Source: an uncultured Pseudomonadota bacterium
GTDB taxonomy: Bacteria; BMS3Abin14
Length of the DNA: 64,000 bases
Reading direction: 5' to 3'
Assembly: GCA_964454175.1 (NCBI GenBank)
Contig: CAYVSA010000001.1
Span: 1-64,000 of the forward strand
Part shown: positions 36,436 to 53,915 of the stretch, one piece after another
Layout: each line of letters begins with the position of its first letter
Position numbering within the stretch: the first letter of the stretch is position 1
Translations under genes and position numbers: made by a program
The notes under the pieces: generated by a model
Told to the model about the DNA's origin: nothing
The model's input: the letters and a program-made list of their open reading frames with translations, nothing else
Database searches by the model: none

Positions 36436-36575
36436 CTTGCATCTGAATAAGTACTGCCTGCATACATTATACTGAATACATTAGAGTTTTTGAGTAGCCT
36501 GGCTGTACAGTCCGGTTGAACTGGGGGGGCGGCATCCATGGTTGACGCGGCCTCCACGAGGGATTGGCTCGAGCG

Positions 36576-36950: not shown

Positions 36951-37498
36951 AGAAGAATCGCAGCAGTTTTTCCAGAGGTCCGTTACCCACAGAAGATAAT
37001 ATCCTCCTGACTACAGTCAGCGCGGTGATGAACTGGGCTCAGCGCTCGTCCGTCTGGCCGCTTCAGTTCGGCCTGGCTTGCTGTGCCATCGAGATGATAG
37101 CCGTGGGATGCGCAAGATACGATATTGCAAGGTTCGGCGCAGAGGTTTTCAGGGCCTCCCCCAGGCAGGCCGACCTGATGATAGTTGCCGGCACTGTAAC
37201 CAACAAGATGGCGCCCGTTGTAAAAAAGCTCTACGATCAGATGTCCGAGCCCAAGTGGGTGCTGGCCATGGGAAGCTGCGCTACCTGCGGTGGTATCTTT
37301 CAGACCTACAGCGTGGTACCCGGTGTTAACCGTATCATACCGGTAGACGTTTACGTTCCTGGGTGCCCCCCAAGGCCCGAGGCCCTGCTCCACGGCCTTA
37401 TGACCCTTCAGAACAAGATCGACAGCCAGGTCCATTTCCGCGCTGCGCCGCTGGATCTCAAGCCGGGTTTCAGGGGCCCCGGAATAAAGGATGACTGA
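36947..37498 (+). CDS. nuoB: NADH-quinone oxidoreductase subunit B
   Basis: [32 protein letters not shown]. Confidence 0.97.
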
Positions 37499-37501
37499 GA
37501 G

Positions 37502-38008
37502 ATGACTGTAGGTTGGAATAGACAGAATTTCTCAGGGGACAGCCCCGGAGAACACCCCGCTGTAAAGGCCATCGAAGAGAATTTCCCCGCGGCATTCATT
37601 GAGTCCGGATCCTTCAGGGGTGAAGTGTGGGCGGTAGTAAAACCTGAAAAATGCAGAGCTGTCCTGCACTTCCTGGCAGAGGAGCCATCGCTCTCCTTTA
37701 ATTACCTGTCCGACCTGACGGCCGTACACGAACCCCGCAAAGACGAACAATTCGAAATAGTATACCAGGTGTATTCCCTGTCAAGGCACTCCCGCTTCAG
37801 GGTCAAAACAAGGCTCGAAGAGGGCATGGAGGCCGACAGCGTTGTCTCCATCTGGCAGGGCGCTAACTGGCTCGAGAGGGAAGTTTACGATAATTTCGGT
37901 GTAGTTTTTTCCGGTCATCCCGACCTGAGGAGGATCATGAATCCTGAAGGTTTCGACGGCCACCCTCTGAGGAAAGATTTTCCCGTCGGCGGACGGGTGA
38001 AATGGTGA
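37502..38008 (+). CDS. nuoC: NADH-quinone oxidoreductase subunit C
   Basis: ANWLEREVYDNFG...GHPDLRRI...GHPLRKDFP. Confidence 0.96.
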   Translation: MTVGWNRQNFSGDSPGEHPAVKAIEENFPAAFIESGSFRGEVWAVVKPEKCRAVLHFLAEEPSLSFNYLSDLTAVHEPRKDEQFEIVYQVYSLSRHSRFRVKTRLEEGMEADSVVSIWQGANWLEREVYDNFGVVFSGHPDLRRIMNPEGFDGHPLRKDFPVGGRVKW

Positions 38009-38017
38009 GGTAGGATC

Positions 38018-39190
38018 TTGGCAAGACAGGAGATAATGACCATTAATATGGGTCCCCACCACCCCTCGACCCACGGGGTGCTCAGGGTGATCCTTGAGCT
38101 GGACGGTGAGACGGTGATAAATGCCGTGCCGGATATCGGCTATCTCCACCGGGGCATAGAAAAACTCGCCGAGCACAAGAAATACATCCAGGTCCTGCCG
38201 CTCACCGACAGGCTGGATTACCTCGCTTCTGGTACGAACAACCTCGCCTATATCCTGGCAGTGGAAAAGCTGCTGGGTCTCGAAGCCCCCAGACGGGCCA
38301 GGTACATCAGAACCATATTCGCCGAGCTGACGAGGATCGGGAGCCATCTTCTCTGGCTGGGTACTCACGCCGCCGACATCGGAGCCATGACTGTGCTCCT
38401 TTACGGCATGAGAGAGCGGGAGGACGTCCTGGACATCATCGAGGAAACAGCGGGTACACGCCTCATGATGACGTACTTCAGGCCAGGCGGAGTCGTGAGG
38501 GATCTCCCTCCCGGCTTTGACAAGAAGATAAAGAGCTTCCTGAAAACATTCCCCGCAAGGATCGACGAATATGAAAGGCTTCTGACGAAGAACAGGATAT
38601 GGCTCCAGAGGACTGTGGGCATCGGTACGATAAGCCGGGATGAAGCCGTATCCCTGGGGCTTTCGGGTCCGGCTCTGCGCGGTTCGGGAGTGGACTGGGA
38701 TATCAGGCGTGACGAGCCTTACGAGGCCTATGATGAGATCGAGTTCGACGTCCCCGTTTATGAGGGCGGCGATGTCTATTCCAGGTATCTGGCCAGAATA
38801 GGTGAACTCAGGCAGAGCGTGCGAATGCTTCTTCAACTCGTGGAAGGCCTGCCCGAAGGGCCATATATCGAAAGGACCGCCAAGTACGTACTCCCTGCCA
38901 AAGAAAGGCTGGACAGCTCCATGGAGGCCATGATCCACCACTTCAAGCTCGTTGTTGAGGGTATGACCCCCCCTGTGGGCGAAGTGTACTCCACAATAGA
39001 ATCTCCCAAGGGTGAGATCGGGTTCTACATCGTGAGCGATGGCAAGCCGCATCCGTACAGGCTCAGGATCAGGCCGCCGTCTTTCGTAAACCTCCAGTCC
39101 CTGTTAACCATGGCAAAGGGGAACATGATTGCTGATGTTGTAGCAATTATCGGAAGTCTTGACATAGTTCTTGGGGAAATTGATCGGTAG
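38018..39190 (+). CDS. nuoD: NADH-quinone oxidoreductase subunit D
   Basis: NMGPHHPSTHGVLR, GYLHRGIEK, DRLDY, DIVLGEIDR; no NiFe CxxC motifs. Confidence 0.97.
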   Translation: MARQEIMTINMGPHHPSTHGVLRVILELDGETVINAVPDIGYLHRGIEKLAEHKKYIQVLPLTDRLDYLASGTNNLAYILAVEKLLGLEAPRRARYIRTIFAELTRIGSHLLWLGTHAADIGAMTVLLYGMREREDVLDIIEETAGTRLMMTYFRPGGVVRDLPPGFDKKIKSFLKTFPARIDEYERLLTKNRIWLQRTVGIGTISRDEAVSLGLSGPALRGSGVDWDIRRDEPYEAYDEIEFDVPVYEGGDVYSRYLARIGELRQSVRMLLQLVEGLPEGPYIERTAKYVLPAKERLDSSMEAMIHHFKLVVEGMTPPVGEVYSTIESPKGEIGFYIVSDGKPHPYRLRIRPPSFVNLQSLLTMAKGNMIADVVAIIGSLDIVLGEIDR

Positions 39191-39192
39191 CG

Positions 39193-39675
39193 ATGATGAA
39201 ACTGTTCGATTCGGAAGAAACAAAAGAGATGGAGGGCATAGCATTACGCTATGCGGCTCCTGCATCCGCGATAATGCCGCTCCTGCACTTTGTACAGGAA
39301 AGGAAGGGCTATCTGGCCGAGGAGTACCTGGTCTTTATCGCCGATTTTCTGGAGATCCCCCACGTCAGGGCCTTCGAGGTGGCAACCTACTACACCATGT
39401 ACTTCACTAAACCCGTAGGCAGGCACCTCATTCAAGTCTGCAGAAATCTGAGCTGCTCTGTAAACGGTGCGCCCGAAGTTATTGCATCTCTCAGGGAGAC
39501 CCTGGGTGTTGGCATCGGTGAGACCACTTCCGACGGCATGTTCACGATCGTGGAAGTTGAGTGCATCGGCGCCTGCGACAAGGCGCCAGCCATGATGGTC
39601 GACGACAAACTCTTCGAGATGGTCAGCCCTGAAACCCTGGGGATGATACTGGATTCATACAGGAAGACCGCGTGA
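39193..39675 (+). CDS. nuoE: NADH-quinone oxidoreductase subunit E (module 1)
   Basis: CRNLSC...CIGAC [2Fe-2S] ligands. Confidence 0.95.
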   Translation: MMKLFDSEETKEMEGIALRYAAPASAIMPLLHFVQERKGYLAEEYLVFIADFLEIPHVRAFEVATYYTMYFTKPVGRHLIQVCRNLSCSVNGAPEVIASLRETLGVGIGETTSDGMFTIVEVECIGACDKAPAMMVDDKLFEMVSPETLGMILDSYRKTA

Positions 39676-39676
39676 A

Positions 39677-40972
39677 ATGACTAAGATCCTGACCCGAAAC
39701 ATAGACCGGCCCAACCCGGCGAATATTGACTCGTACCTCTACAACGAGGGTTACCAGGCGCTTCCCATGGCACTGAATGATATGATGCCTGAAGATGTGA
39801 TCGATGAGGTAAAGGCCTCCCGCATCAGGGGCCGCGGCGGTGCCGGGTTCCCGGCAGGCATGAAGTGGGATTTTGCCTCCAGGGACCCAAGGGGGCCCAA
39901 GAACATTATTGCCAACGCCGATGAGGGTGAGCCCGGGACGTTCAAGGACAGGGTGCTCATCGAAAAAGATCCCCACGCTCTCCTGGAGGGCATGGCCATA
40001 GCGGGCTACGCTGTCGGCGCTGAGTTGGGATTTGTCTACATACGGGGGGAATACCCGGAAGGCGCCAGAATACTTGAAAAGGCCATCGCTGATGCAGAGG
40101 CCAGGTCGTTCCTTGGCAAAAACATCCTGAACTCGGGGTTCGATTTCACCATAACAGTTCACAGGGGTGCAGGTGCCTACATCTGTGGGGAGGAAACCGC
40201 CCTTATCGAGTCACTGGAGGGCAAGAGAGGCCAATCAAGGATCCGGCCGCCTTTCCCGGTGAACGTCGGCTACATGAATCTGCCAACAGTAGTTAACAAC
40301 GTTGAGACCCTTGCTAATATCCCTCAGATCATTCTCAGGGGCGGTGAGTGGTATGCCGGGTTCGGAACCCGGGAGTGTACAGGCACCAAGCTCTACTCGA
40401 TAAGCGGTAAGGTGGCCAGGCCCGGGGTATACGAATTGCCCATGGGGACCACACTCAGAGATCTGATATTCGAGCACTGCGGCGGGATGAAGGACGGCAG
40501 GAGCTTCAAGGCCGCATTCCCGGGCGGTGCTTCCAGCGCCTGTCTTGACGAGACCGGGCTCGATGTCCAGCTGGACTTCAACTCCCTCGCGGCAGCTGGC
40601 AGTATGCTGGGTTCAGGGGCCGTCATGGTCCTCGATGATTCGGACGATATGGTCAAGGCTGTTCATGTCCTCATCAAGTTTTTCGAGCACGAGTCGTGCG
40701 GTAAATGCACTCCCTGCAGGGAGGGGCTGTTCTGGATAAGGCAGATATTGGACAGGATCCTCGCAGGGGGAGGGACCGAGAGCGACCTGGAACTTCTTCT
40801 GAACATAAGCGAAAATATTGCGTCCACTTCATTTTGCGGCCTTGGAGAAGCTTCGGTAAGCGCTCTGGTCAGCACTATTAAAAAGTTCAGGAGCGAATTT
40901 CTGGCTTACATAAACTCTCCTGAGGAAAAAGCCGAAGAAACATCGGCATCGGGGCAGGAGCAGGCATCGTGA
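39677..40972 (+). CDS. nuoF: NADH-quinone oxidoreductase subunit F (module 1, canonical)
   Basis: GRGGAGFP, NADEGEPGTFKDR, GAYICGEETAL, ESCGKCTPCREG...C. Confidence 0.96.
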   Translation: MTKILTRNIDRPNPANIDSYLYNEGYQALPMALNDMMPEDVIDEVKASRIRGRGGAGFPAGMKWDFASRDPRGPKNIIANADEGEPGTFKDRVLIEKDPHALLEGMAIAGYAVGAELGFVYIRGEYPEGARILEKAIADAEARSFLGKNILNSGFDFTITVHRGAGAYICGEETALIESLEGKRGQSRIRPPFPVNVGYMNLPTVVNNVETLANIPQIILRGGEWYAGFGTRECTGTKLYSISGKVARPGVYELPMGTTLRDLIFEHCGGMKDGRSFKAAFPGGASSACLDETGLDVQLDFNSLAAAGSMLGSGAVMVLDDSDDMVKAVHVLIKFFEHESCGKCTPCREGLFWIRQILDRILAGGGTESDLELLLNISENIASTSFCGLGEASVSALVSTIKKFRSEFLAYINSPEEKAEETSASGQEQAS

Positions 40973-43644
40973 TGGTCAAGATCGAAATTGACGGCCGTCA
41001 AGTTACTGTTAACGGCCACATCACCGTGCTGGAGGCTGCGAGCAAGCTCGGTATCTACATACCGACCTTCTGCCACCATCCAAGGCTCTCGGAGCTCGGC
41101 GCCTGCAGGATGTGCCTCGTGGAAGTGGAGGGCATGGGTAAACTGCAGACGGCCTGTACGCTTGCAGTTGCAGAGGGAATGGTGATCAGGACCAGCACTG
41201 ACAGGGTGGAAAAATCCCGCCGCGCCATGCTCGAATTCCTGTTGATCAACCATCCACTGGAATGCACTGTGTGCGACGCTTCGGGAGAATGCACCCTCCA
41301 GGACTTCGCTTTCAAGTTCGGCAGCGCCGAGACGAGGTTCACCGAGAAAAAGAGGGTATTGCGCGACCATATCATAAGCCCCCTCATCGACAGGAATCTG
41401 AACAGGTGCATCCAGTGCAAGCGGTGCGTTAGAATTTGTGACGAAGTTCAGGGCGTCACTGCCCTGGGTATGTCCTACCGCGGGGCAAAGACTGTGGTGG
41501 GGCCATTTATGGAAAAATCACTGGACTGCGAATACTGCGGCCACTGCATATGGGCCTGCCCGGTGGGTGCCATCACTTCGCGGGTTATGAGACACAAGAT
41601 CCGCACGTGGGAGATGGACAAGGCTGAGGCTATATGCGCGTTCTGCAGCTGCGGCTGCACGCTCACATACAATCACAGGGACAACAGGGTCTACAAGGTC
41701 ACCCACGCTGACGGCAGGGGTGTTAATCAGGGCAGTCTCTGCTCGAGGGGTTATTTCGGATATGATGTGATAAACAGCCCGGAAAGGCTAACGACACCAC
41801 TTGTCCGAAAAGATGGTGAACTGGTTCAGGCAACATGGGAGGAGGCCCTTGAGACCGTTGCATCCGCGCTGGGCAAAGCTGCCGGTGAGGGCGGTGAAAA
41901 CGCGGTGGGAGGCATCGTATCAGCTCGGCTTACAAACGAGGAACTATATCTGTTTCAGAAGCTGATGAGATCCTGCCTGTCCAGCAACTGTGTTGATGTG
42001 ACCACCGGAGAGTGGAACAGAACAGTCCTTCCAGTACTTGAGGAAAGGCTGGGTGTCTTTGCTGCCACCAACTCCTTAGACGAGGTCACCTATGCTGACT
42101 CCCTCATCATAATCGGCTGCGACATTACGGTGGAAAACCCCATAACTGGTATAAAGGTGAAGTCGGCCATCCACAGAGGGGGGTCGGTTTCCGAGATCAA
42201 CCCCAGGAAAACAGCCCTGTCCCGCATGACAAAGAGGACCATGCTGGTTAGGCCCGGCAACGAACTTACCCTGGTTAAGGGCTTGATCAGGGCGGTCTTT
42301 GACGAGGATCTGATCAGCCAGGAGGACGGGAGCACCTGCAGCAACCTGGATGAACTCAGGCTGTCGGTATTAGACCAGGACCTGAAGTCGATCTCCGATG
42401 AAACAGGAGTGTCTCAGGAAGACATCACAGGCCTTGCCAGGGAGTTCATGGGGGCGCGCAGGGCGTCCATAATATTCGGTGAGTCTGCTGTCATGACTGA
42501 GCAGGGTCCGGCTCTTATCAATGCACTTATCGACCTGCTCATGCTCACCGGGAAATTGGGTCAGGAGGGTTTCGGCCTGTATCCCGTAAACGGTACAGCC
42601 AATTTTCAGGGAGCAGTGGACATGGGGGTCGCGCCGGCTCACCTGCCTGGCCACGCCCCCCTTGCTGTAAAGGGCTCGGCTAAAATGCTGGCCGACGCAT
42701 GGAAGTCCTCTATCCCGGAAGGCCAGGGTCTTTCGGCTCCACAGATGCTTAAGGCTGCAGTGGAAGGTTCCCTGAAAACGCTCTATGTAGTGGGTGTAGA
42801 CATAACCGGTTCTTTCCCCGACAGTTCGATCGCAGAAAAGGCCCTGTCTAACCTGGATTTCCTTGTTGTGCAGGACCTTTTCCTCACGGATACAGCAAGG
42901 GCGGCAGATGTTGTTCTGCCCGCTGGCAGCCTGGCTGAAAAAAACGGCACCCTTACCAACGTGGAAAGGCGAATCCAGAGAACACGCAGGGCCATCGACG
43001 GGCTGGGGAAGTCCATGCCTGACTGGAGGATCTTTTCTGAACTCGGCGTAGCCCTGGGCCATATGGAAATGAAATATGTGAATGCTGCAGAGGTGCTGGA
43101 CGAGATCGCGCAGACCGTGCCCTACTACTCCGGCATCAACCATCGAATACTGGCAGATAATGGGCTCCAGTGGCCCTTCACCCAGGATGACGCCAGGGAA
43201 GTTTACCATGAAGGTTATCTCGGGACCCGCCACCTCCTTTCAGGAGGAGTCGCTGACAGTCTCAGGTCATTTGCAGCCGTGAAATCCTGGGGCAAAGTGC
43301 CAGCGAACGCCGATTATCCCTATACCCTGGTCACAGGAGATCTCCTGTCCCATTCGGGCACCTTCACGCGCTACTCTGAATCGTTGAACAAGATAGACTC
43401 TGAAGGTGCTGTCGTTATGAATCCGGAAACCGGGGCCAGCCTGGGCATAGATGATGGAGGAAAAGCCAGGGTTGTTTCGGCCCATGGTGAACTAACTGTA
43501 AAGACCATTTATTCAGAAGACCTCATGGAGGATATTTTCTTCCTTCCGAAACATTTTGCCGACGTACCTGCAGGCAGGTTGATGAGTGCGTCGGGAAACG
43601 GCAGCGAGACTGCTGTTGTGCAGGTACGCGTGGAAAGAGCGTGA
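40969..43644 (+). CDS. nuoG: NADH-quinone oxidoreductase subunit G (long, FdhF-like, module 1)
   Basis: [2Fe-2S] CRMC, HPLECTVC...C, CIQCKRCVRIC, CEYCGHCIWACP, CAFCSCGC...C; molybdopterin-oxidoreductase body without the Cys/Sec-His ligand. Confidence 0.9.
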   Translation: MMVKIEIDGRQVTVNGHITVLEAASKLGIYIPTFCHHPRLSELGACRMCLVEVEGMGKLQTACTLAVAEGMVIRTSTDRVEKSRRAMLEFLLINHPLECTVCDASGECTLQDFAFKFGSAETRFTEKKRVLRDHIISPLIDRNLNRCIQCKRCVRICDEVQGVTALGMSYRGAKTVVGPFMEKSLDCEYCGHCIWACPVGAITSRVMRHKIRTWEMDKAEAICAFCSCGCTLTYNHRDNRVYKVTHADGRGVNQGSLCSRGYFGYDVINSPERLTTPLVRKDGELVQATWEEALETVASALGKAAGEGGENAVGGIVSARLTNEELYLFQKLMRSCLSSNCVDVTTGEWNRTVLPVLEERLGVFAATNSLDEVTYADSLIIIGCDITVENPITGIKVKSAIHRGGSVSEINPRKTALSRMTKRTMLVRPGNELTLVKGLIRAVFDEDLISQEDGSTCSNLDELRLSVLDQDLKSISDETGVSQEDITGLAREFMGARRASIIFGESAVMTEQGPALINALIDLLMLTGKLGQEGFGLYPVNGTANFQGAVDMGVAPAHLPGHAPLAVKGSAKMLADAWKSSIPEGQGLSAPQMLKAAVEGSLKTLYVVGVDITGSFPDSSIAEKALSNLDFLVVQDLFLTDTARAADVVLPAGSLAEKNGTLTNVERRIQRTRRAIDGLGKSMPDWRIFSELGVALGHMEMKYVNAAEVLDEIAQTVPYYSGINHRILADNGLQWPFTQDDAREVYHEGYLGTRHLLSGGVADSLRSFAAVKSWGKVPANADYPYTLVTGDLLSHSGTFTRYSESLNKIDSEGAVVMNPETGASLGIDDGGKARVVSAHGELTVKTIYSEDLMEDIFFLPKHFADVPAGRLMSASGNGSETAVVQVRVERA

Positions 43645-43657
43645 GGAGGTATAGACG

Positions 43658-44125
43658 ATGATCGATATCAGCCAGCTCAAGGCAATATCCTCCCTTGAAG
43701 GAGTGTCAGAGGACGCACTGTCGGAATTGGCCAGGGTAATGCAGAAGAGGGTCTACAAAGACTCTGACCCTATTTTTAACGAGAACACCGAAGGCGGTGA
43801 CCTTTATCTCGTGGGCGAGGGATCCGTGAAGTTGGAGAAAAGGGCAAAAGAGGGAGAGGCCCAGAGCCTGTCAGTGGTTCGTGCCGGCGATTTCCTCGGG
43901 ATAATGACCTTCCTTGTGGGCGGCAAGCACTCTGCAAGCGCCGTGGCCCATGACGACTGCACACTTTACGTCCTGGACAAGGCCTCTTTTGATGCTTTCG
44001 TTGAAAAGTTCCCGGCCGATGCCAACAGCATCTTCATGATATTTATAGAACGGCTCATCGAATCAGTCAGAAGCATGTATGAGCGGTACATCGATATGGT
44101 CAACTACATGTGGAGGTGGCGGTGA
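43658..44125 (+). CDS. Stand-alone cyclic-nucleotide-binding (Crp-type effector) domain protein
   Basis: IFNENTEGGDLYLVGEGSV...GDFLG...HSASAVA cNMP beta-roll pattern; no HTH; GGAGG RBS. Confidence 0.85.
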   Translation: MIDISQLKAISSLEGVSEDALSELARVMQKRVYKDSDPIFNENTEGGDLYLVGEGSVKLEKRAKEGEAQSLSVVRAGDFLGIMTFLVGGKHSASAVAHDDCTLYVLDKASFDAFVEKFPADANSIFMIFIERLIESVRSMYERYIDMVNYMWRWR

Positions 44126-44643
44126 ACCCTGAGGAAATTGAGGGATACGAGGAAGAAGAAGAGCTCGATCTTTCTCCCGTCAATGACATACTGAGTGACC
44201 TGGGCGACGCGAAGGGGATGCTGATCCCGCTTCTGCAGGAAGTCCAGAAGGTTTTCGGGTATGTACCTGAAGACGCCGCCAATATGGTTGCCGATGGGCT
44301 GGGCCTTTACCGCAGCCAGGTCTATGGTGTTCTGACATTTTATACGCAGTTCCACCTGAGCCCCAGGGGACGGCATATCATACGCGCATGTTCCGGGACT
44401 GCCTGCCACGTCAGGGGCGGTAAGAGCGTTATTGCCAGGCTGGAGAATCTCCTGGAGATCGAACATGGAGAGACCACAGAAGACGGGCTTGCTTCCTTTG
44501 AAAAAGTTGCCTGCCTCGGGGCGTGCGGTCTCGCCCCGGTGATCATGATAGACAACGATGCCTTCGGACAGGTGGATCCAACAAAGACCGAGCGGATAAT
44601 CGAGAACCTGCGCGAGGTGTCCGGCACACAGAAAAGTGATTGA
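44122..44643 (+). CDS. Second NuoE/HydC-like [2Fe-2S] subunit
   Basis: LIPLLQEVQ..FGY, YGVLTFY, CSGTACHVRG...CLGACGLAP; GTG start overlapping the upstream TGA. Confidence 0.92.
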   Translation: MNPEEIEGYEEEEELDLSPVNDILSDLGDAKGMLIPLLQEVQKVFGYVPEDAANMVADGLGLYRSQVYGVLTFYTQFHLSPRGRHIIRACSGTACHVRGGKSVIARLENLLEIEHGETTEDGLASFEKVACLGACGLAPVIMIDNDAFGQVDPTKTERIIENLREVSGTQKSD

Positions 44644-44673
44644 TCGGCCGTAACAGGGAGGGCCGAAAGAGAT

Positions 44674-47600
44674 ATGTCTAAAAGTTCAAACGATAAACTG
44701 ATCGTACTGGGAATGGGCACATGCGGCCTGGCTTCCGGCGCGCGTGGAGTCCTCTCCCAGGTTGAAGAGGAACTTACCAGCCTCAAGCTGGATGTGCCTA
44801 TCCTTAAGACCGGCTGCATAGGGATGTGCTACCAGGAGGTTCTCCTGGACGTGTCACTCCCTGGCCGTACCAGGGTCACCTACGCCAAAGTTCAGCCCGA
44901 GATGGTCTCAAAGATCATTGAAAGCCATGTCGTAAAGGGAAAACCCGTAAACGATTACGCCATCGGGCAGATACAGCAGAACGGTGAAAAGGCGTATAAG
45001 GGCATCCCGACTTACGACGAGATGGATTTCTTCGCGAAGCAAAAGCGGATCGTTCTTCGGCGCTGTGGATTCATCGACCCTGACAAGATCGAGGATTACC
45101 TTGACACAGATGGTTACAAGGCCGCGGAAAAGGCCCTGACAACGCTATCGCCGACCGTGATCAGGGAGATCGTCAAGAAGGCTGGCCTGAGGGGCCGCGG
45201 CGGAGGCGGATTCCCCACCGGTCTCAAGTGGGAGTTCTGCGCCACGGCGGCAGGGGAACCGAAGTACCTCATCTGTAACGCGGATGAGGGTGATCCGGGC
45301 GCCTTTATGGACAGGAGCGTTCTGGAAGGTGACCCGCACGCGCTGCTGGAGGGAATGATCATTGCGGCCTATGCTATCGGCGCAGAATACGGCTATATTT
45401 ACTGCCGCGCAGAGTATCCCCTGGCGATCGAGAGACTGGGAACCGCTATTGCCCGGGCCGAGGAAAAAGGATTCCTGGGAAAGAATATATTCGGTACTGA
45501 CTTTTCCTTTACCCTCAGGATCAAGGAGGGCGCCGGAGCTTTCGTCTGCGGCGAGGAAACTGCTCTCATGGCGTCCATCGAGGGTAAACGGGGCATGCCC
45601 CGATCGAGACCGCCTTTCCCTGCTCATAAAGGTCTCTGGGGTAAACCTTCCAACATCAACAACGTCGAGACTTTTGCCTGTGTCGCCCCCATCATCCTTG
45701 GAGGCGCTGACAGTTATTCCTCGATCGGGACCGAAGGCACCAAGGGCACGAAAGTTTTCGCCCTTACCGGAAAGATCAATAACACGGGGCTGATCGAGGT
45801 CCCCGCCGGTACCCAGCTAAAGGAGATAATTTACGATATCGGGGGCGGTATTGTTGGTGGAGGCAAGTTCAAAGCCGCCCAGCTCGGGGGCCCTTCAGGA
45901 GGCTGCCTGCCCGCCGAGATCGTTGAAACACCCATCGATTACGATTCACTGATCGAAGCCGGAGCCATGATGGGTTCGGGCGGCGTAGTTATAATGGACG
46001 AGCGGACTTGCATGGTGGACGTTGCCAGGTTCTTTTTGAACTTCACAACTTCCGAGTCCTGCGGGAAATGTGTGCCCTGCCGCCTTGGGACCAAGACAAT
46101 GCTCAGCATCCTGGAGCGTATCACCGCTGGCAAAGGTACCATGCAGGACCTTGTCAACCTGGAGGAGATGGGTGCACAGATAAAGACTACTTCCCTGTGC
46201 GGTCTGGGACAGACTGCCCCGAACCCGGTACTTTCCACCATCAGGTACTTCAGACACGAGTACGAGGCCCACATATTAAACAAGAGATGCCCCGCGGTAG
46301 TTTGCAAGGAGGTCATCTCATCACCGTGCCAGCATGTATGCCCTATCGAGACGGATGTTCCAGCATATGTAACCCTTATCGGGCAGGGGAAATTCACGGC
46401 CGCTCTTGATCTCATCCGCATGACCAATCCCCTCCCGGCTGTCTGCGGCAGGGTCTGCCATCATCCGTGCGAAAGCAAGTGCAGACGCGGAGAACTGGAC
46501 AGGCCTATCAGCATCAGAAACCTCAAGAGGGTAGCCTCCGATAACGCTGCCGCCGATGCTGCCACCGGAAAGTACCAGATCAAGTCAAAGAAGATCTCCG
46601 GCAAGGGAAAGAAGGTCGCTATCATCGGGGGCGGGCCTTCCGGTCTCACGGCAGCCCACTTCCTCGCACTCAAGGATTTTTCCCCTGTCATTTTCGAAAA
46701 ACAGAGGGTAGCGGGCGGCATGCTTATGCTGGGAATACCTGAGTACCGCCTGCCGAGACAGACACTGAACCATGAGATCAGGGCAATCGAAGATATGGGT
46801 GTCCAGATCCATTACAGCACCCCGGTGGGCGAGGCTGTCTCCTTCGATCAGCTCAGGATGGATCATGAAGCTGTATTTATTGCATCCGGTGCCCACGTCG
46901 ATCTCAAGATGGGCATACCAGGTGAGGATTCCGAAGGGGTGTATGAAAGCCTCAGCTTCCTCAGAAGGGTTAACCTGGGAGAAGAAGTGGCACTGGGAAA
47001 CAAGGTTGCAGTCGTTGGTGGAGGCAATACCGCCATTGACGCATCGAGGATCGCCAGGCGCCTGGGTGCTGACGTGACGATCCTCTACAGGAGAACGCAA
47101 AATGAAATGCCCGCTGATGACATGGAGATCCATGAGGCTCTCCTGGAGGGTATAGAGCTGGAAACGCTCGTGGCCCCGGTGAAGGTACTTTCGTCCGGCG
47201 GGAAAATGACTGGCGCCACCTGTATCAGGATGGAACTTGGCGAGCCTGATTCTTCCGGAAGACGAAGGCCGGTTCCCATAGAGGGGTCCGAGTTTGACAT
47301 TCACCTCGACAACCTGATCGTTGCAGTTTCAGGCAAGCCCGACCTTTCATACCTCACCGACAAACACGGGATAGGACTTTCCAGGTGGGATACGGTGGAT
47401 GTTCACCCCTACACGCAGATGACCAACGTGGAAGGCGTGTTTGCCGGGGGCGACGTGGTTACAGGCCCATGGATGGTCATAGATGCAATTGCAGCCGGCA
47501 AGAGGGCGGCAGCACACATGGAGCTGTTCTTAAACGGGGAGGAAGTTGCCCCATTGTACGATGTCACAAAACCCAATATCTCGGGAATAGAGGCAATTGA

Positions 47601-47757
47601 GCTTACGGATGAGGACATGACCCTTACGAGGCCTGACATGCCCACACTCGAAGTTGTCAAGAGGTTAAAGGACTTCGCTGAGGTTGAACTGGGTTTTTCC
47701 AAAGAAGAGGCTATGAAAGAGGCCAGGCGCTGCCTGCGCTGTGACATTTCTGATTAA
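44674..47757 (+). CDS. HydB-type NuoF fused to a GltD/NfnB-like FAD-NAD(P) oxidoreductase
   Basis: N-terminal GTCG...GCIGMC domain; NADEGDPGAFMDR; GAFVCGEETAL; GGPSGG; SCGKCVPCR; H..CPAVVC; then SPCQHVCP, CGRVCHHPCE, GGGPSG, GGGNTAID..R..YRR, RCLRC. Confidence 0.92.
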   Translation: MSKSSNDKLIVLGMGTCGLASGARGVLSQVEEELTSLKLDVPILKTGCIGMCYQEVLLDVSLPGRTRVTYAKVQPEMVSKIIESHVVKGKPVNDYAIGQIQQNGEKAYKGIPTYDEMDFFAKQKRIVLRRCGFIDPDKIEDYLDTDGYKAAEKALTTLSPTVIREIVKKAGLRGRGGGGFPTGLKWEFCATAAGEPKYLICNADEGDPGAFMDRSVLEGDPHALLEGMIIAAYAIGAEYGYIYCRAEYPLAIERLGTAIARAEEKGFLGKNIFGTDFSFTLRIKEGAGAFVCGEETALMASIEGKRGMPRSRPPFPAHKGLWGKPSNINNVETFACVAPIILGGADSYSSIGTEGTKGTKVFALTGKINNTGLIEVPAGTQLKEIIYDIGGGIVGGGKFKAAQLGGPSGGCLPAEIVETPIDYDSLIEAGAMMGSGGVVIMDERTCMVDVARFFLNFTTSESCGKCVPCRLGTKTMLSILERITAGKGTMQDLVNLEEMGAQIKTTSLCGLGQTAPNPVLSTIRYFRHEYEAHILNKRCPAVVCKEVISSPCQHVCPIETDVPAYVTLIGQGKFTAALDLIRMTNPLPAVCGRVCHHPCESKCRRGELDRPISIRNLKRVASDNAAADAATGKYQIKSKKISGKGKKVAIIGGGPSGLTAAHFLALKDFSPVIFEKQRVAGGMLMLGIPEYRLPRQTLNHEIRAIEDMGVQIHYSTPVGEAVSFDQLRMDHEAVFIASGAHVDLKMGIPGEDSEGVYESLSFLRRVNLGEEVALGNKVAVVGGGNTAIDASRIARRLGADVTILYRRTQNEMPADDMEIHEALLEGIELETLVAPVKVLSSGGKMTGATCIRMELGEPDSSGRRRPVPIEGSEFDIHLDNLIVAVSGKPDLSYLTDKHGIGLSRWDTVDVHPYTQMTNVEGVFAGGDVVTGPWMVIDAIAAGKRAAAHMELFLNGEEVAPLYDVTKPNISGIEAIELTDEDMTLTRPDMPTLEVVKRLKDFAEVELGFSKEEAMKEARRCLRCDISD

Positions 47758-47805
47758 CGGGAGCAGCCTGCGTTAAAGCAGTTAATGAGGAGTAGGGAAA
47801 AGAGC

Positions 47806-50589
47806 ATGTTCAACGTCATCGTAGACGGCAGACCGGTAAGCGTACCCAGGGGCTCAACGATCCTGGAGGCAGCCAGGAAACTGGAAATCGAAATTCCGAC
47901 TTTCTGCGACCACAAGCACCTGTTCCCATACGGATCGTGCCGTATGTGTGTTGTTGAGCTTGAGGGCTCAGACAGGCTGTTTGCCTCCTGTGTTACGCCG
48001 GTTACCGACAAGATGGAGATATATACTGACACTGCCAGGGTCAAGGCGGCAAGAGAGACTGTGCTTGAGCTTCTCCTGACCTATCATCCCCTGGAGTGTC
48101 CCGTGTGCCCTCAGTCGGGCCGCTGCATGCTGCAGGACATGACCTTTGAGCACGGGAAGGACAGCGGCAGGTTCGGCTCGGTGGGCGTTGACAAGAGAAT
48201 TGACTACCTCTCGCCTCTAATAGAGATGAACCAGAACAGGTGCATTCTCTGCGGAAGATGCGTGAGAATATGCGATGAGGTTCAGGGCGAGGGGGAGCTG
48301 GATTTTGTGAATCGCGGGTTCCCCACTGTGGTTGAACCGTCCTTTGAAAGGCCGATGGATTGTGAATTCTGCGGCCAGTGTGTACAGGCCTGCCCCGTGG
48401 GCTCGCTGTACAGCAGAATCTACAAGCACACGGCCCCATCGTGGGAACTGACTCCGGTAAGGACTACATGCCCCTTCTGCGGCGTAGGCTGCACCCTCAA
48501 TCTTGAGGTCAAGGGGGATCATATCTATCACGTACTGGGAGTGGATGACGAGGGCTCCAATAACGATGGGAACCTGTGCTGTAAAGGCAGGTTCGGATAC
48601 GAATACGTCCATAGCCCAGAGAGAATAATGCAGCCAATGGTGCGCAAGGGCGAAGACCTCGAACCCGCAACGTGGGAAGAGGCCTACGATCGCATCAAAG
48701 AGGGCTTCGGCCGGATTCGTGACGAGCACGGACCGGATGCCCTTGGCGGTATAGCATCCGCAAGGTGCACTAACGAAGAAAATTATCTCTTCCAGAAGTT
48801 CATGAGAGCCGCGATAGGAACAAATAACATTGACTCTGTTGCCAGATTTGGCCACTTCCCCGGGATGGAGGCACTGCTAAAAGCTTTCGGCGTCGGGGCA
48901 CCCACCAACTCCCTGGCAGACCTGGCACACACTGATCTGATTTTTGCCATCGATTCCAACATCACTGAAGACGACCATGTGGCGGGGTTGAAGGTTCTCA
49001 AACGGGTTCGCTACGGTGGGGCTCAGCTTATTGTTGCCAATAGCCGCAAGATCAAACTTACAAAATTTTCAGATGCCTGGATGAGGCACAGGCCCGGTTC
49101 CAGTGTGGCACTGTTAAATTCGATGGCGTGGGTTGTTCTGGAGGAGGGGCTGGAAGATGAGGAGTTCTGCCGCAAGAGGGTTGGCGGAATAGATGATCTG
49201 AGAGCTTTTCTCAAAGACTACGCGCCTGAAAAGACGGCCGCCATTACTGGTGTGGCCGCAGAAGCAGTGCGGGAAGCCGCCAGGGCCATCGCTTCCTCCG
49301 CGAACGTCACCATACTGCTCACCCTCGGCGGTGCGAGCCCATACACCGGGGAAGACACCGTTGCAGCAGCAGCCAACCTCGCTCTCATTACCGGCAACGT
49401 TGGCCGCCAGGGCGCGGGGATAATTCCCTTGTCCGAGTACAACAATGTTCAGGGCTCCATGGATGTGGGGGCCCTCGCCCAGTTCCTGCCCGGTTACCAG
49501 AGCGTTACAGATAGCGGAATAAGATCCTGGTTCGAGGAGACCTGGGGAGTTGACCTGCCCGGGAAGCCTGGGCTTGAAGCTATGGAGATGTTTGCCGCGG
49601 CGAAAGAGGGAAAACTCCGCGGGCTGTACATAATGGGGGAGAACCCGCTCTCTGCATTCCCGGACAGGGAGTCGGTGATCGACGGTCTTTCAAGCCTGGA
49701 CTTTCTTGTGGTTCAGGACATGTTCCTGACGCAGACAGCCCTCTTTGCCGACGTGGTATTGCCCACCTCTGGCGGGCCGGAAAAGAACGGTACCTTCACC
49801 AACACCGATCGCAGGGTCCAGAGGGTGCGAAAGGCGATCAAGTCGCCGGGAGATACCAGGGACGACTGGAGGATCCTTACCGATCTCTCCGCGGCGATGG
49901 GGTATCCTGCCGAATATGCCGATGTTATGGAGATCACGGAAGAGATTGCAAGCGTGGTTCCTTTCTACGCCGGGATAACGCCTGAAAGGCTTGAGGGAAA
50001 CGGCCTGCACTGGCCCTGTCCCAGGGAGGATCACCCCGGGACGGATTTTCTTCATGAGAACAGATTCCCTTCAGGGCTTGGCCGCACTCGCGCAATTGAC
50101 GGCAGGCTCCAGAAGAAATCCTCTGCGAACTACCCTTTCCTGCTGGTGCCGGGCCTTCTCCTGTACCACTCCGGGACGACCACCACGAGAGCTAAAGGTC
50201 TCAACGAAGTTGCTCCTATCGCCCTTGCGGAGATAAACCCCGAAGACGCCCGGAAGCTGGACGTAAAATCCGGAGACTGGGTAAAGCTCACCAGTCTGAG
50301 AGGTATGGTGGACATAAAAGTTCTCGTCACGGATAAGACTATGGAAGGGACGATCTTCGCACCCACTCACTACCACGGCACACCTGTCAATGCCCTGCTG
50401 ACTTACGACCACGTGAACGAGAATGCCGTCACAAGCGTCTCCGTGGAGAGGATCGAGAAGAGATTAGAAGATGAGAGAACAGAGCCGGTGGAAGGACAGG
50501 TAACCAGGCTGAAGAAGATCGTTAAGGATATACAGAAGAAGAGGCAAAGAGCCCACCATGGACAGGGCTCCGACGCCTCGGGAGGATGA
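47806..50589 (+). CDS. Second NuoG/FdhF-like (SfrA-like) Fe-S subunit lacking the Mo/W ligand
   Basis: Five Fe-S motifs (CRMC; HPLECPVC; CILCGRCVRIC; CEFCGQCVQACP; CPFCGVGC). NNIDSVARFGH has Gly in place of Cys/Sec and PLSEYNNVQG lacks the FDH Arg. Start at MFNVIV. Confidence 0.9.
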   Translation: MFNVIVDGRPVSVPRGSTILEAARKLEIEIPTFCDHKHLFPYGSCRMCVVELEGSDRLFASCVTPVTDKMEIYTDTARVKAARETVLELLLTYHPLECPVCPQSGRCMLQDMTFEHGKDSGRFGSVGVDKRIDYLSPLIEMNQNRCILCGRCVRICDEVQGEGELDFVNRGFPTVVEPSFERPMDCEFCGQCVQACPVGSLYSRIYKHTAPSWELTPVRTTCPFCGVGCTLNLEVKGDHIYHVLGVDDEGSNNDGNLCCKGRFGYEYVHSPERIMQPMVRKGEDLEPATWEEAYDRIKEGFGRIRDEHGPDALGGIASARCTNEENYLFQKFMRAAIGTNNIDSVARFGHFPGMEALLKAFGVGAPTNSLADLAHTDLIFAIDSNITEDDHVAGLKVLKRVRYGGAQLIVANSRKIKLTKFSDAWMRHRPGSSVALLNSMAWVVLEEGLEDEEFCRKRVGGIDDLRAFLKDYAPEKTAAITGVAAEAVREAARAIASSANVTILLTLGGASPYTGEDTVAAAANLALITGNVGRQGAGIIPLSEYNNVQGSMDVGALAQFLPGYQSVTDSGIRSWFEETWGVDLPGKPGLEAMEMFAAAKEGKLRGLYIMGENPLSAFPDRESVIDGLSSLDFLVVQDMFLTQTALFADVVLPTSGGPEKNGTFTNTDRRVQRVRKAIKSPGDTRDDWRILTDLSAAMGYPAEYADVMEITEEIASVVPFYAGITPERLEGNGLHWPCPREDHPGTDFLHENRFPSGLGRTRAIDGRLQKKSSANYPFLLVPGLLLYHSGTTTTRAKGLNEVAPIALAEINPEDARKLDVKSGDWVKLTSLRGMVDIKVLVTDKTMEGTIFAPTHYHGTPVNALLTYDHVNENAVTSVSVERIEKRLEDERTEPVEGQVTRLKKIVKDIQKKRQRAHHGQGSDASGG

Positions 50590-50593
50590 TGAG

Positions 50594-51592
50594 ATGATCT
50601 GCCCGGAATGCAATCTGCTCATACCGGAGGACAGCCGGTTCTGCAAGGAGTGCGGCTATAAACTGGAGGCCAGTGTGGAGGAGCGTGATGCTCTCTCCAA
50701 CCAGGAAAAGGCGGAGAAGCTTTACCGGGAGGGTATCGTCCAGTACCACCAGGGTCAGTTTGACGAGGCTATTTCACTTTGGGACGAGGCGGTTGGTCTT
50801 ATTCCGGACTTTCAAATGACGAACTACTACCGGGGAGTGGCGTACTACGACAAGGGCATGCTGTCTGTTGCCATGGAGTGCTTTAAAAAATCTGAGGCTT
50901 CGCATCCCACCTCCTCTGCTGTCCACTACCGTCTTGGTCTGACTTATTATGCATTGGGGCTTTTAAGCGAATCTGAATACCACTTCAAGAAAGTGGAGGC
51001 ACTGATACCCAATACCGCCCAGATCCACTACAGGCTGGGCCTTCTGTACCAGAAAAACGCGGCCCTGGACGAGGCCGTTTCAGAACTGCTGAAATCACTG
51101 GAATTTTCACCTGACTTTGCCAGAGCTTACTTCACACTCGGAGTGACTTATTTCCAGAAGGGAATGCTTGCCGAAGCAGCCGAGGCGCTGCGCAAAGTTG
51201 TGGATATTTCACCGAGATATGTCATGGCCTACTATCACCTGGGCATTGTGCTGTTTCACAAGGGCAACCTTCCCGAAGCCATCAAGGCATTTGACGAGGC
51301 GGTTCTGCTGTCCCCGAACTTCACGGCGGCCTACTACCACCTGGGAGTGTCCCACGCCAGGAAGGGTGCCCACGAAGATGCAGTGTCAAGCTTCATCAAG
51401 GTGAACGGTCTGGACCCCATGGATTCCTCAGCTCTCTACCACCTTGGGAACAGTTATGTGCATCTGGGGATGCTGGACAAGGCTGAAGATACACTGCAGG
51501 AGGCACTGAGGCTTAACCCCGACAACTCCGAGGCCTACTTCCTCCTTGAAAAGGTTGGAGAGATCAAGCGCTCCGGGGCGTTGGAGTACTAG
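50594..51592 (+). CDS. Zinc-ribbon plus TPR-repeat protein
   Basis: CPEC...FCKECG followed by many 34-aa TPR units (AYYHLG...A...P); GGAGG RBS before ATG 50594. Confidence 0.9.
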   Translation: MICPECNLLIPEDSRFCKECGYKLEASVEERDALSNQEKAEKLYREGIVQYHQGQFDEAISLWDEAVGLIPDFQMTNYYRGVAYYDKGMLSVAMECFKKSEASHPTSSAVHYRLGLTYYALGLLSESEYHFKKVEALIPNTAQIHYRLGLLYQKNAALDEAVSELLKSLEFSPDFARAYFTLGVTYFQKGMLAEAAEALRKVVDISPRYVMAYYHLGIVLFHKGNLPEAIKAFDEAVLLSPNFTAAYYHLGVSHARKGAHEDAVSSFIKVNGLDPMDSSALYHLGNSYVHLGMLDKAEDTLQEALRLNPDNSEAYFLLEKVGEIKRSGALEY

Positions 51593-51604: not shown

Positions 51605-52624
51605 ATGGATAACACAACCATGTACATACTTCTTTCTCTTTTCAAGATCGTTCTGGTCCTTGCCATAACGCTGACTTCGGTCCCGATAATGGTCTGGGTG
51701 GAGAGGAAGGTGTCCGGCCACATCCAGAACAGGCACGGACCGCTCTACGTTGGGCCCTTCGGGCTGCTGCAGCCCTTTGCCGACGTTGCCAAGCTGCTCC
51801 TTAAGGAAGACATTATACCCACCGAGGCGGACAAGGTGCTTTACGTTCTGTCGCCGCTCATGTCCTTTGTACCGGCGCTTCTGACTTTTGCGGTCATACC
51901 CATCGGGCCGCACCTGAACATAACAGACATCAACATCGGCATAGTCTACGTTCTGTCCGTTTCATCGCTGGGTGTATACGGGCTTGTTATGGCAGGGTGG
52001 TCGTCCAACAATAAATACGCCCTCCTGGGCGGTCTCAGGTCAGCGGCGCAGATGATAAGCTACGAGATAACCCTGGGGCTGTCCATTATAGGCGTTCTTA
52101 TGTACTCCAGGTCACTTTCAATGGTCAGGATCGTGGAGATGCAGGCAGACACGTGGTTCGTCCTGCCCCAGTTCCTGGGATTCATTCTGTTTCTCGTGGC
52201 ATCTTTTGCAGAGACCAACAGGCTGCCCTTTGACCTTCCGGAGGCGGAACAGGAGCTCATAGCGGGCTACCACGTCGAGTATTCCAGCCTCAAGTTCGCC
52301 CTGTTCTTCCTTGCCGAGTACGTTGCCATGCTCTCGGCTTCGTGTCTTATCGTCACCCTTTTCTGGGGGGGCTGGCTGCCGATCCCTTACATCGGACCGC
52401 TGGTGGAGGGCCTCCTGCCGCAGGTTGTAGTAATGTACGTAATGCCTATCCTGTGGTTCCTGGTTAAGGTTGCTTTCTTCATGTTCTTCTTCGTGTGGGT
52501 TCGCTGGACCTTCCCCAGGCTGCGTTACGACCAGCTGATGTCACTCGGCTGGAAAGTGCTGCTTCCCCTGGCGGTATTAAACGTTTTCATCTCTGGCGTC
52601 ATCAGGATGTCGGGAGTTATGTAG
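51605..52624 (+). CDS. nuoH: NADH-quinone oxidoreductase subunit H
   Basis: ERKVSGHIQNRHGP, GLLQPFAD..KLLLKE, ETNRLPFDLPEAEQEL, PRLRYDQL. Confidence 0.97.
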   Translation: MDNTTMYILLSLFKIVLVLAITLTSVPIMVWVERKVSGHIQNRHGPLYVGPFGLLQPFADVAKLLLKEDIIPTEADKVLYVLSPLMSFVPALLTFAVIPIGPHLNITDINIGIVYVLSVSSLGVYGLVMAGWSSNNKYALLGGLRSAAQMISYEITLGLSIIGVLMYSRSLSMVRIVEMQADTWFVLPQFLGFILFLVASFAETNRLPFDLPEAEQELIAGYHVEYSSLKFALFFLAEYVAMLSASCLIVTLFWGGWLPIPYIGPLVEGLLPQVVVMYVMPILWFLVKVAFFMFFFVWVRWTFPRLRYDQLMSLGWKVLLPLAVLNVFISGVIRMSGVM

Positions 52625-52635
52625 GAGACTGACTA

Positions 52636-53082
52636 TTGGGTTTGATCACGAATATATTCCAGACTGACCTTTTAAAAGGTCTTTCACTGACACTCAAGAA
52701 CTTCTTCGTTCGGCCTGTCACCCTGAGGTACCCGGAAGAGAAGTGGGAGATGCCCGAACGGTTCAGGGGCGCCCAGGTGCTCAAGAGGCACGAAGATGGA
52801 AAAGAACGATGTGTGGGCTGCGGCCTGTGTGGGGAGATCTGTCCTTCCAGCGCTATTACTATTGTCACCTCGGAGGGAGTTGACCACGCAAAGAAGATAG
52901 ACTTCTACCAGGTCGATCTTGGCCTTTGCATCTACTGTGGTTTCTGCGAGGAGGTTTGCCCGGTCAACGCAGTTTTCATGGGTAAGGATTACGAGCTGTC
53001 TGTGACCGATCCCGGCAGGCTCAAAGTTTCCAAAGAACAGATGCTCGAGAAGGGGGACTCCCCCCGATACGATAAACTCTAG
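52636..53082 (+). CDS. nuoI: NADH-quinone oxidoreductase subunit I
   Basis: TLRYPEE...RFRG, CVGCGLCGEICP, CIYCGFCEEVCP. Confidence 0.96.
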   Translation: MGLITNIFQTDLLKGLSLTLKNFFVRPVTLRYPEEKWEMPERFRGAQVLKRHEDGKERCVGCGLCGEICPSSAITIVTSEGVDHAKKIDFYQVDLGLCIYCGFCEEVCPVNAVFMGKDYELSVTDPGRLKVSKEQMLEKGDSPRYDKL

Positions 53083-53089
53083 GGAGTTA

Positions 53090-53605
53090 GTGATGGGCCT
53101 TCAGGACATATTTTTCTACTATTTTGCCATCGTATCCGTTGTTACTGCTCTGCTGGCGGTCTCTCGATACAATCCTGTCCACTCGGTGCTGTTCCTGGTT
53201 CCCTGCTTTTTCCACATAGCGGGGCTGTTCGTGCTGCTGGGGGCAGAGTTCCTGGCTGCCATCCAGATACTGATCTACACAGGTGCCATCATGGTCCTGT
53301 ATCTGTTTGTCATCGCCCTGCTTAACCTCTCAGGCATCAGGGGACGCAAGATCACTCACCGGCAGAGTTTCCTCGCGGCCATCGCCGTGCTGGTCCTTGT
53401 TGTCCAGCTCGTAGTGCTGGCTATCACAGCGACCTTCCCCGGGCCTTTCGAGAAATTCGCGTCGGCGTCGTTTCTGGGTAACACAGAGGCGGTGGGGTCG
53501 GTGATGTATACAACCTTCCTGTTCCCCTTCGAACTGGCTTCCCTGGTTCTGCTCGTCGCTATTTTCGGGGCGGTTGTCCTTGCCAAGAGGGAGGCGGGTG
53601 AATGA
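53090..53605 (+). CDS. nuoJ: NADH-quinone oxidoreductase subunit J
   Basis: [31 protein letters not shown]. Confidence 0.95.
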
Positions 53606-53904: not shown

Positions 53905-53915
53905 GAGATCAAACG

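Follow-up and report, generated by a model that had tools for sequence, protein, structure and literature searches.

Two sets of electron-input genes in a complex I operon: candidates for exchangeable heads in a small bacterial phylum

Complex I is generally treated as having one electron-input module (N-module) per enzyme. Organisms with two complex I isoenzymes usually carry the whole operon in duplicate (PMC4453560). What, then, would a single complex I operon do with two input modules? We addressed this question for the nuo operon at positions 36564 to 59027 of a 64,000-nt stretch of DNA (hereafter the window; positions 1 to 64,000 of contig CAYVSA010000001.1, assembly GCA_964454175.1) from an uncultured bacterium of the lineage BMS3Abin14. 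A preliminary description of this DNA had proposed either a complex I with exchangeable heads, NADH- versus NADPH/ferredoxin-linked, or a co-expressed soluble transhydrogenase-like enzyme feeding it. From sequence and comparative data we consider it fairly probable that the operon encodes two interchangeable heads on one proton pump, chosen by fuel.

One operon, two sets of input genes

The operon runs in the order ABCD-E1F1G1-cNMP-E2F2G2-TPR-HIJKLMN, with every gene on the plus strand (cNMP, cyclic nucleotide monophosphate; TPR, tetratricopeptide repeat; Fdh, formate dehydrogenase; ORF, open reading frame):

36564..39190, +, nuoA, nuoB, nuoC and nuoD, the quinone module (Pfam and NCBIfam models; NuoB, C and D above curated cut-offs; nuoA ORF 36564-36950, nuoD ORF 38018-39190)
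39193..39675, +, NuoE1, [2Fe-2S] subunit of head 1 (TIGR01958, 161 bits, cut-off 142.4)
39677..40972, +, NuoF1, canonical FMN/NADH subunit (TIGR01959, 577.6, cut-off 558.65)
40969..43644, +, NuoG1, a long NuoG (TIGR01973, 496.1, cut-off 470.05; motifs)
43658..44125, +, stand-alone cNMP-fold protein, 155 aa (PF00027; alignments)
44110..44643, +, E2, BfuC/NuoE-like subunit of head 2 (PF01257; CxxxxC and CxxxC motifs)
44674..47757, +, F2, BfuB core plus FAD/NADP(H) domain (PDB matches, motifs, AlphaFold2)
47785..50589, +, G2, BfuA-like, with an Fdh-alpha-like body (TIGR01591, 661.9, just below the cut-off of 666.25)
50558..51592, +, TPR protein with an N-terminal zinc-ribbon (Pfam TPR families; CxxC motifs)
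51605..59027, +, nuoH, I, J, K, L, M and N, connector and membrane arm (nuoH, 51605-52624, and nuoI by family models; nuoJ to nuoN by ORF translation and mutual similarity; nuoN ends at 59027)

All 14 core genes, nuoA to nuoN, are present, and there are two NuoEFG-type sets where a canonical operon has one. Family models, gene order and spacing bear out the earlier claim of two complete input modules in tandem. The single membrane arm and single quinone module are confirmed as well: tblastn found no other nuoA-D, H-K, E, F or full-length G in the host genome (G000; 2.17 Mb, 98.5% complete), which has one nuo locus. Overlaps or gaps under 50 bp had been described; if the longest ORFs are taken, they range between -32 and +30 bp from nuoA to nuoL, and they reach 48 bp at most with the better-supported starts of G2 (47806, giving 927 aa) and the TPR protein (50594, giving 332 aa). 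E2 could start at 44110, 44116 or 44122. This spacing suggests that the operon is co-transcribed. The reported absence of a visible terminator also holds. A consensus scan of 36000-55000 gave 21 terminator-like sites against 16.4 +/- 4.7 expected and 3 promoter-like sites against 10.5, neither kind being more frequent than in shuffles, and the two terminator-like matches on the plus strand of the insert are weak and lie inside coding sequence.

An assembly duplication or mobile insert is ruled out, since the paralogues are 37% (E1/E2), 46% (F1/F2) and 38% (G1/G2) identical as proteins and the two sets share no near-identical DNA repeat, the longest repeats being 76-77 nt at 71-74% identity. 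Third-codon-position GC lies between 0.61 and 0.73 throughout the 19 genes, and the five inserted ones fall at 0.64-0.67. Judged by their sequences, the two E/F/G sets are old paralogues.

A canonical head and a Bfu-type head

Head 1 (E1F1G1) is, by its sequence features, a canonical NuoEFG. NuoF1 has none of the clusters B2-B5, lacking the N-terminal thioredoxin-like domain, the B5 ligands and the ferredoxin domain, and the F tree places it with NuoF (Shimodaira-Hasegawa-like support 100). NuoG1 carries N1b, N4, a His-ligated N5, N7, a complete two-cluster ferredoxin domain and a Mo-less Fdh body; 31 of the 34 PDB matches of its N5-N4 segment are complex I 75-kDa subunits, aligned without gaps. 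The operon thus resembles that of canonical 14-subunit complex I in its 14 genes, their standard order and the scores of E1, F1 and G1, all above NCBIfam cut-offs, and differs in five additional genes between G and H and in the complete two-cluster ferredoxin domain and N7 of G1. The predicted function of head 1 together with the body is NADH:quinone oxidoreduction with proton pumping.

Head 2, on the same kind of evidence, is a Bfu-type (HydABC-like) head whose ferredoxin-binding domain has been replaced by an StnC-like FAD/NADP(H) domain. Residues 1-549 of F2 form a BfuB core (7T2R_B 739 bits, 9N5U_B 720 and 8OH5_B 718, versus 404 for canonical Nqo1), with FMN, B1 and B5 ligands; E2 carries the C1 motifs. 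Residues 550-1025 form an StnC/NfnA-type FAD/NADP(H) domain (best PDB matches 9BOV_A, 8OH5_C and 9N5U_A, NfnA/StnC being closest) that stands in for the B3/B4 ferredoxin domain and begins about 6 residues past the last B5 ligand, the usual place of B3/B4. The B5 ligands (C446, H533, C539 and C544) are invariant, with C463/466/469/509, in 47 alignment rows and, with K618, R692 and R806/R807, in 18 of 18 full-length fusions, across which the GGGNTA and YRR motifs are near-invariant; we take YRR to be an NADP(H) signature. K618 aligns with K170 of StnC, a position occupied by Glu in bifurcating NfnB, and R692 with R239; F2 thus has a Lys where the large subunit of NfnAB has the Glu ligand of its proximal cluster, and the nuo operon has no NfnA gene. 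The N-terminal thioredoxin-like domain contains C17, C48 and C52 but lacks the first Cys of the pair, as does the aligned NfnB of T. sibiricus. An AlphaFold2 model of F2 from the 47-row alignment had a pLDDT of 85 and a low-confidence linker at 547-555; a single-sequence fold (pLDDT 33) was unusable. Against NF009454, the model covering SfrB, F2 scored 463 (cut-off 916). Because a GltD-like domain replaces the two-cluster ferredoxin domain, the earlier suggestion that head 2 is ferredoxin-linked does not hold for this operon, although that form occurs in relatives such as G011, G003 and G005. Instead, head 2 is probably specific for NADP(H).

G2 is Fdh-alpha-like over its whole length; taken whole it is closest to FdsA, and its nearest outside relatives are Fdh-alpha proteins at about 45% identity. 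It retains N1b, the His-ligated N5, both clusters of the ferredoxin domain (the N4 pair) and N7. However, Gly356 occupies the position of the Mo-ligand Cys and a Ser that of the catalytic Arg. The metal-ligand position holds Gly in 11 of 12 orthologous matches (Ser in one), versus Cys in 89 of 91 Fdh-like matches of 820-960 aa, 90 of which keep the Arg. We therefore rejected G2 as a formate dehydrogenase or, the codon not being TGA, a hidden selenoprotein; an Fe-S wire is the reading that fits these residues best.

The kind of module to which head 2 belongs already has a name. Nuo-Bfu, which Schut et al. (2022, PMC9304861) predict as a type 3 Bfu complex I in Geobacter, Deferribacteres, Nitrospirae and Planctomycetes, likewise has a BfuABC module, with the BfuB core and B5 ligands that F2 keeps, within a nuoA-N operon. 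There, however, BfuABC replaces NuoEFG (14 subunits), whereas the window operon keeps both, has an FAD/NADP(H) domain and no B3/B4 on F2, and contains extra cNMP and TPR genes. StnABC/NfnABC (Nfn-Bfu; 8OH5, 9BOV and 9N5U) share with head 2 a NuoE-like subunit, a BfuB core, a GltD-like FAD domain with a Lys-ligated proximal cluster and an inactive Fdh body (PMC10482914, PMC12018979), but in them the G-like subunit (BfuA) carries the GltD domain as an insertion and BfuB keeps its ferredoxin domain, whereas in the window the GltD domain sits on the F subunit, replaces the ferredoxin domain and is encoded inside a nuo operon. Sub-type I BfuB of Hydrogenedentota [FeFe]-hydrogenases has a C-terminal DPD_II plus FAD/NAD(P) unit in place of B3/B4, as F2 does (PMC11406978), but its partner is a hydrogenase, not NuoG, and BfuB-GltD fusions do not form one clade (approximately unbiased (AU) test, p 3e-6; well-supported branches force at least four changes). 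Two selenocysteine formate dehydrogenase clusters (L136 2678-8487 and L141 4833-10639) also have such a fusion as F subunit, and are candidate NADP-linked formate dehydrogenases by sequence; their sister loci have a ferredoxin-form F subunit. Because the fusion serves both these enzymes and [FeFe]-hydrogenases, we regard it as a general NADP(H)-type head. At another locus (L024 8282-15623, genome G033), E and a BfuB-GltD fusion precede a NuoG-like protein with an NfnA-like C-terminal part and then an NfnB-like gene, which places a Bfu core next to NfnAB parts.

In complex I, the His-ligated N5 cluster passes electrons to NuoI. In Nuo-Bfu the same His-ligated cluster (A3) is assumed to be the exit (PMC9304861). 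Both G1 and G2 keep the N5 motif, and the N5-N4 segment of G2 matched complex I best among PDB entries (108 bits; HydA 93, FdsA 68, NfnA 66), whereas that of a true formate dehydrogenase from G022, used as a control, matched HydA first. Segments were next compared with two profiles, one built from 11 NuoGs encoded in other lineages' nuo operons and one from 11 Fdh-alpha proteins. This contrast classed all 26 family G1 and G2 segments as complex I-like (+12.7 to +31.4), together with 11 of 11 left-out NuoGs but none of 43 held-out Fdh-alpha proteins. These sequence comparisons suggest that both heads would dock on the complex I body. With one exit per G and one NuoI, alternation is the simplest model.

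Single-head relatives and accessory genes

The host phylum comprises 16 genomes, all of one family, and is a small phylum with two N-modules per complex I body in which relatives provide natural single-head controls. Both heads are present in 11 of the 16 (G000, G001, G002, G004, G006, G008, G009, G010, G011, G012 and G014), with the set split over two scaffold positions in G002 and truncated by contig ends in G006, G012 and G014. The architecture is thus conserved inside nuo operons, a point on which the preliminary description had made its proposal depend. Ten of these operons have the GltD tail, and one (G011) the ferredoxin form, a 604-aa BfuB. Two genomes have the Bfu head alone: G003 (99% complete; no cNMP or TPR gene) and G005 (97%; TPR gene kept). 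Both are of the ferredoxin form, have no match to G1, and conform exactly to the Nuo-Bfu layout, BfuABC replacing NuoEFG and the B3/B4 domain needed for ferredoxin bifurcation being present, as it is in G011. NuoEFG stands alone in G007 (98% complete) and probably in G013, which is 80% complete and whose contig breaks off within G1; G015 (71% complete) yielded nothing. Because close relatives keep either head alone, each can be the sole one.

Trees of both F and G copies, another check that had been proposed, agree with this picture. F1 groups with NuoF, and G1 and G2 form separate clades within which the single-head copies nest (support 100). Dual and sole-head G2 are 73% identical in the N5 segment and 59% in the Fdh body. 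In G004 and G011, of the same genus, the F2 cores are sisters (97) and the G2s near-identical, and one has a GltD tail where the other has a ferredoxin tail, an arrangement recovered in both F trees; the tail is therefore swappable on one scaffold. That the GltD tail was gained once in the family was suggested by one F tree and unsupported in the other, and we do not retain it; the two trees root the family differently, and the order in which the tails appeared differs with them. A metagenome scan gave at least 23 loci, at least 11 of them family-type dual-operon fragments, one (L053) in the ferredoxin form. The deepest G1 and G2 matches (P0265 and P0145) are both listed with a contig of 111,156 bases; this may mean that the family acquired its dual state long ago. 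G005, whose nuo operon has a ferredoxin-type F2, also has a stand-alone E2 and GltD-type F2 away from that operon (L021 9745-13343), with no G gene beside them.

The cNMP protein is present in 11 of 11 dual operons and absent from three complete single-head operons of the family. In cNMP sensors of the CRP type, the phosphate-binding cassette has a Glu and an Arg, and a DNA-binding domain follows. The 155-aa protein has neither this pair nor such a domain: it matches only PF00027, has an invariant His91 at the expected Arg site, and ends in a conserved C-terminal helix. We rejected it as a dual-head-specific marker or bridge, since it also stands behind single heads (G041, G042 and L044) and 3' of selenocysteine formate dehydrogenases at seven loci without nuo genes (L134-L136 and L138-L141); its gene is a companion of G/Fdh-alpha genes generally. 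In a profile search of representatives with the cNMP alignment, multi-domain cNMP proteins drowned out the signal. Two exact cNMP peptide patterns, which miss divergent cases, were scanned across 185,579 genomes and gave 13 loci: eight of the family, three other dual operons, one single-head operon and one unrelated. A complex prediction for G1 (aa 1-845) with the cNMP protein scored 0.00, which weighs neither way. The TPR gene is present in every dual operon that reaches that far and in G005, and absent from G003 and G007; its product is presumably an accessory or assembly factor of head 2. One or both proteins may help to choose or assemble a head.

Two heads on one pump, and the alternatives

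The arrangement that we favour would work as follows. A single body (NuoABCD-HIJKLMN) would accept two alternative input modules competing for one NuoI/NuoCD site, giving two enzyme forms. Head 1 would oxidise NADH in the ordinary way. Head 2 would be a Nuo-Bfu head whose low-potential branch ends in the FAD/NADP(H) domain, not in a ferredoxin site; electrons from NADPH would pass through FAD, two [4Fe-4S] clusters, the mobile E2 cluster and FMN/B1 to G2 and then, alone or merged with electrons from NADH, through N5 and NuoI to quinone. In reverse, head 2 would produce NADPH. Path and direction are those that the cofactor ligands suggest; gene content, those ligands, the single-head relatives and the domain swap are the directly observed support. 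Exchangeable heads are thus the better supported of the two proposals in the preliminary description, with single-head relatives and the N5 segments of both G subunits in their favour, although the second head would here be of an NADPH type.

G000 has a monomeric isocitrate dehydrogenase (PF03971), a family that we take to be NADP-dependent, and PntB was found in none of the 16 genomes of the phylum. PF00180 matches are probably LeuB and were not used. By analogy with Geobacter, whose tricarboxylic acid (TCA) cycle yields NADH, NADPH and reduced ferredoxin (PMC2825233), one head per donor would fit. Head 2 would give NADPH from the TCA cycle a direct route into complex I, and so to a proton pump, in a cell without PntAB. 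With potentials of -280 mV for NADH, -380 for NADPH, -500 for ferredoxin and -74 for menaquinone (Table 1 of PMC9304861), NADPH offers less extra driving force than ferredoxin, and the benefit of head 2 may be access to NADPH rather than more pumping.

Several observations weigh against exchangeable heads. In no genome did we find the GltD form as sole head of the operon; all 10 GltD-type operons retain head 1. The N5 test gives false negatives (-22.3 for the sole G of G041, 0.0 to -14.2 for halves of the fused G proteins described below), and the Fdh rows that trained its profile are close kin of the held-out rows. The F2 model (pTM 0.58) leaves the position of the tail unfixed. The GltD-like domain of Stn/NfnABC delivers its electrons to the His-ligated cluster (PMC12018979, PMC10482914); if the F2 tail did the same on G2, NuoI would be blocked. 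G000 has other genes that could handle NADPH, an NfnAB-like pair (contig C21) and RnfCDGE; its rnf cluster (G000:C33:4600-8200) contains C, D, G and E only. The nuo quinone module is intact, but for the quinone pathway MqnA/D (futalosine) matched in one of the 16 genomes, and MenB of G000 scored below the cut-off. Lastly, fused G-G proteins elsewhere indicate that two heads can be tethered.

These fusions are one reason to consider that the heads are physically joined through G1 and G2, so that they would alternate at NuoI while tethered to a single body or would link two bodies into a dimer with unlike heads, a possibility to which we give perhaps a minor share of belief. Three genomes (G022, G044 and G045) of a six-genome phylum encode, after nuoA-N, E1-F1-[G-G fused]-cNMP-E2-BfuB (ferredoxin form)-cNMP, the fused proteins being 1676-1788 aa long and almost linker-free; G041 of the same phylum has a single Bfu head. 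Unfused tandem G genes occur in a third phylum, of 20 genomes (L043 and L133): G046 has E1-F1-G-G-cNMP-E2-BfuB-cNMP among nuo genes, with nuoD/I on another contig, and G067 also has tandem G genes. Furthermore, G2 of GltD-clade dual operons has a conserved C-terminal helix that sole-head G2 lacks, and StnC oligomerises through its FdhF-like and N-terminal domains (PMC10482914). However, the fusion is rare, with three clusters (69-90% identical) of one lineage among 472 matches. Its halves, Ga and Gb, cluster with the pair of G046 in clades of their own and are not orthologues of G1 and G2: on a 40-row quick LG+G4 tree the AU test rejected a grouping of Gb with G2 (p 0.0003) and, at the margin, one of Ga with G1 (p 0.042). 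This weakens the fusion as direct proof for the window operon, and canonical and Bfu heads were therefore either paired twice or have swapped G subunits. Moreover, the window's G genes are unfused, relatives lose each head singly, and the second G of G046 is interrupted by an in-frame TAA (L043 6335-6337), either an assembly error or a real inactivation. Nuo-linked BfuB cores group weakly (83) in one tree and are mixed with Fdh-linked cores in another.

The fullest version of joined heads, which we regard as speculative, is a two-headed complex I in which NADH and Bfu heads are held together, covalently in the G-G lineage and non-covalently here, on one pump or a dimer. The Bfu head would merge NADH and NADPH electrons at its FMN/Fe-S centre, complex I would double as an energy-linked transhydrogenase in a cell without PntAB, and tails swapped by recombination would retune the donor. 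The fusions point in any case to a quaternary structure absent from the solved complexes I that we searched. In the genomes with the fusion the membrane arm is expanded (L031, L087 and L088, from G022, G045 and G044), with about six NuoL/M/N-like genes and a small membrane ORF; the arms of G041 and G046 look similarly expanded. A further locus (L132 5711-18840, G066; nuoI on another contig) reads nuoABCD-G-cNMP-E2-BfuB-cNMP-JK, its G being of the type that stands first in tandem pairs.

Somewhat less probable, in our view, is that E2F2G2 with its GltD tail is a soluble NADPH:NAD+ transhydrogenase or diaphorase, an Stn without the ferredoxin branch, whose tail folds onto the N5 cluster of G2 and whose NADH feeds head 1. 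E2, F2 and G2 do contain all Stn/NfnABC domains other than B3/B4, NfnA/StnC are the nearest relatives of the tail (K618 and R692 correspond to K170 and R239), head 1 is always kept with the GltD form, and the extra helix of G2 follows the GltD clade better than dual status. However, the N5 segment of G2 is still complex I-like and no less conserved than that of sole-head G2, G2 is nearly unchanged between G004 (GltD) and G011 (ferredoxin), the tail starts at the normal B3/B4 place, and the GltD-type F2 of G005 is without a G of its own. We give very little credence to the idea that G2 still binds a Mo/W-pterin and oxidises formate or another small substrate, making head 2 a substrate dehydrogenase: its near-cut-off Fdh-alpha score, its Fdh-alpha relatives and the database labels of its orthologues suggest as much, but the Cys ligand and catalytic Arg are replaced, and the codon is not TGA, unlike in the true selenocysteine enzymes (L134-L141).

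Returning to exchangeable heads, we consider the architecture to be real and conserved, a complex I variant assembled from known modules (Nuo-Bfu and BfuB-GltD fusions). SfrAB of Geobacter, presumably composed of GltD-like and NuoG/Fdh-like parts, resembles head 2 in its proposed oxidation of TCA-cycle NADPH, but is encoded away from the nuo operon and lacks NuoE/F. It has been called a putative NADPH dehydrogenase (PMC2825233, PMC3543383). Other cases of multiplicity are unlike the two-head operon: Heliorestis convoluta has two nuoEFG copies outside its nuo operon (PMC7143216), and in Syntrophobacter one nuoEFG serves two bodies (PMC4453560). Duplicated operons and SfrAB-like proteins are described in PMC4453560, PMC4758237, PMC3543383 and PMC2825233, and we found no description of a two-head nuo operon in the openly accessible literature, a search that left outside subscription papers and Supplementary Table 1 of PMC9304861, whose 51 Nuo-Bfu entries may include dual operons. 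The operon makes testable the exchange of N-modules on an assembled arm, the reality of the confurcation predicted for Nuo-Bfu (PMC9304861) and the replacement of ferredoxin by NADPH at a Bfu centre. An NADPH domain built into complex I would open a route by which Geobacter-like anaerobes could respire TCA-cycle NADPH.

The surroundings of the operon offer minor observations. The host genome has 27 ORFs with at least three haem motifs. Upstream of hemL and divergent from nuoA, a minus-strand group at 28670-34920 comprises rex, a 10-haem cytochrome, a cytochrome b-like gene, an 11-haem cytochrome and ATP synthase Fo genes; a Rex-box-like pattern had no matches within the window. At 18919-20862 (plus strand) lies a gene for a 647-aa protein with an N-terminal zinc-ribbon-like stretch, two to three hydrophobic helices and a GltD-like domain. 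It falls below every NCBIfam cut-off, has similar-length matches across the family, and is by its sequence a possible membrane-anchored NAD(P)H oxidoreductase.

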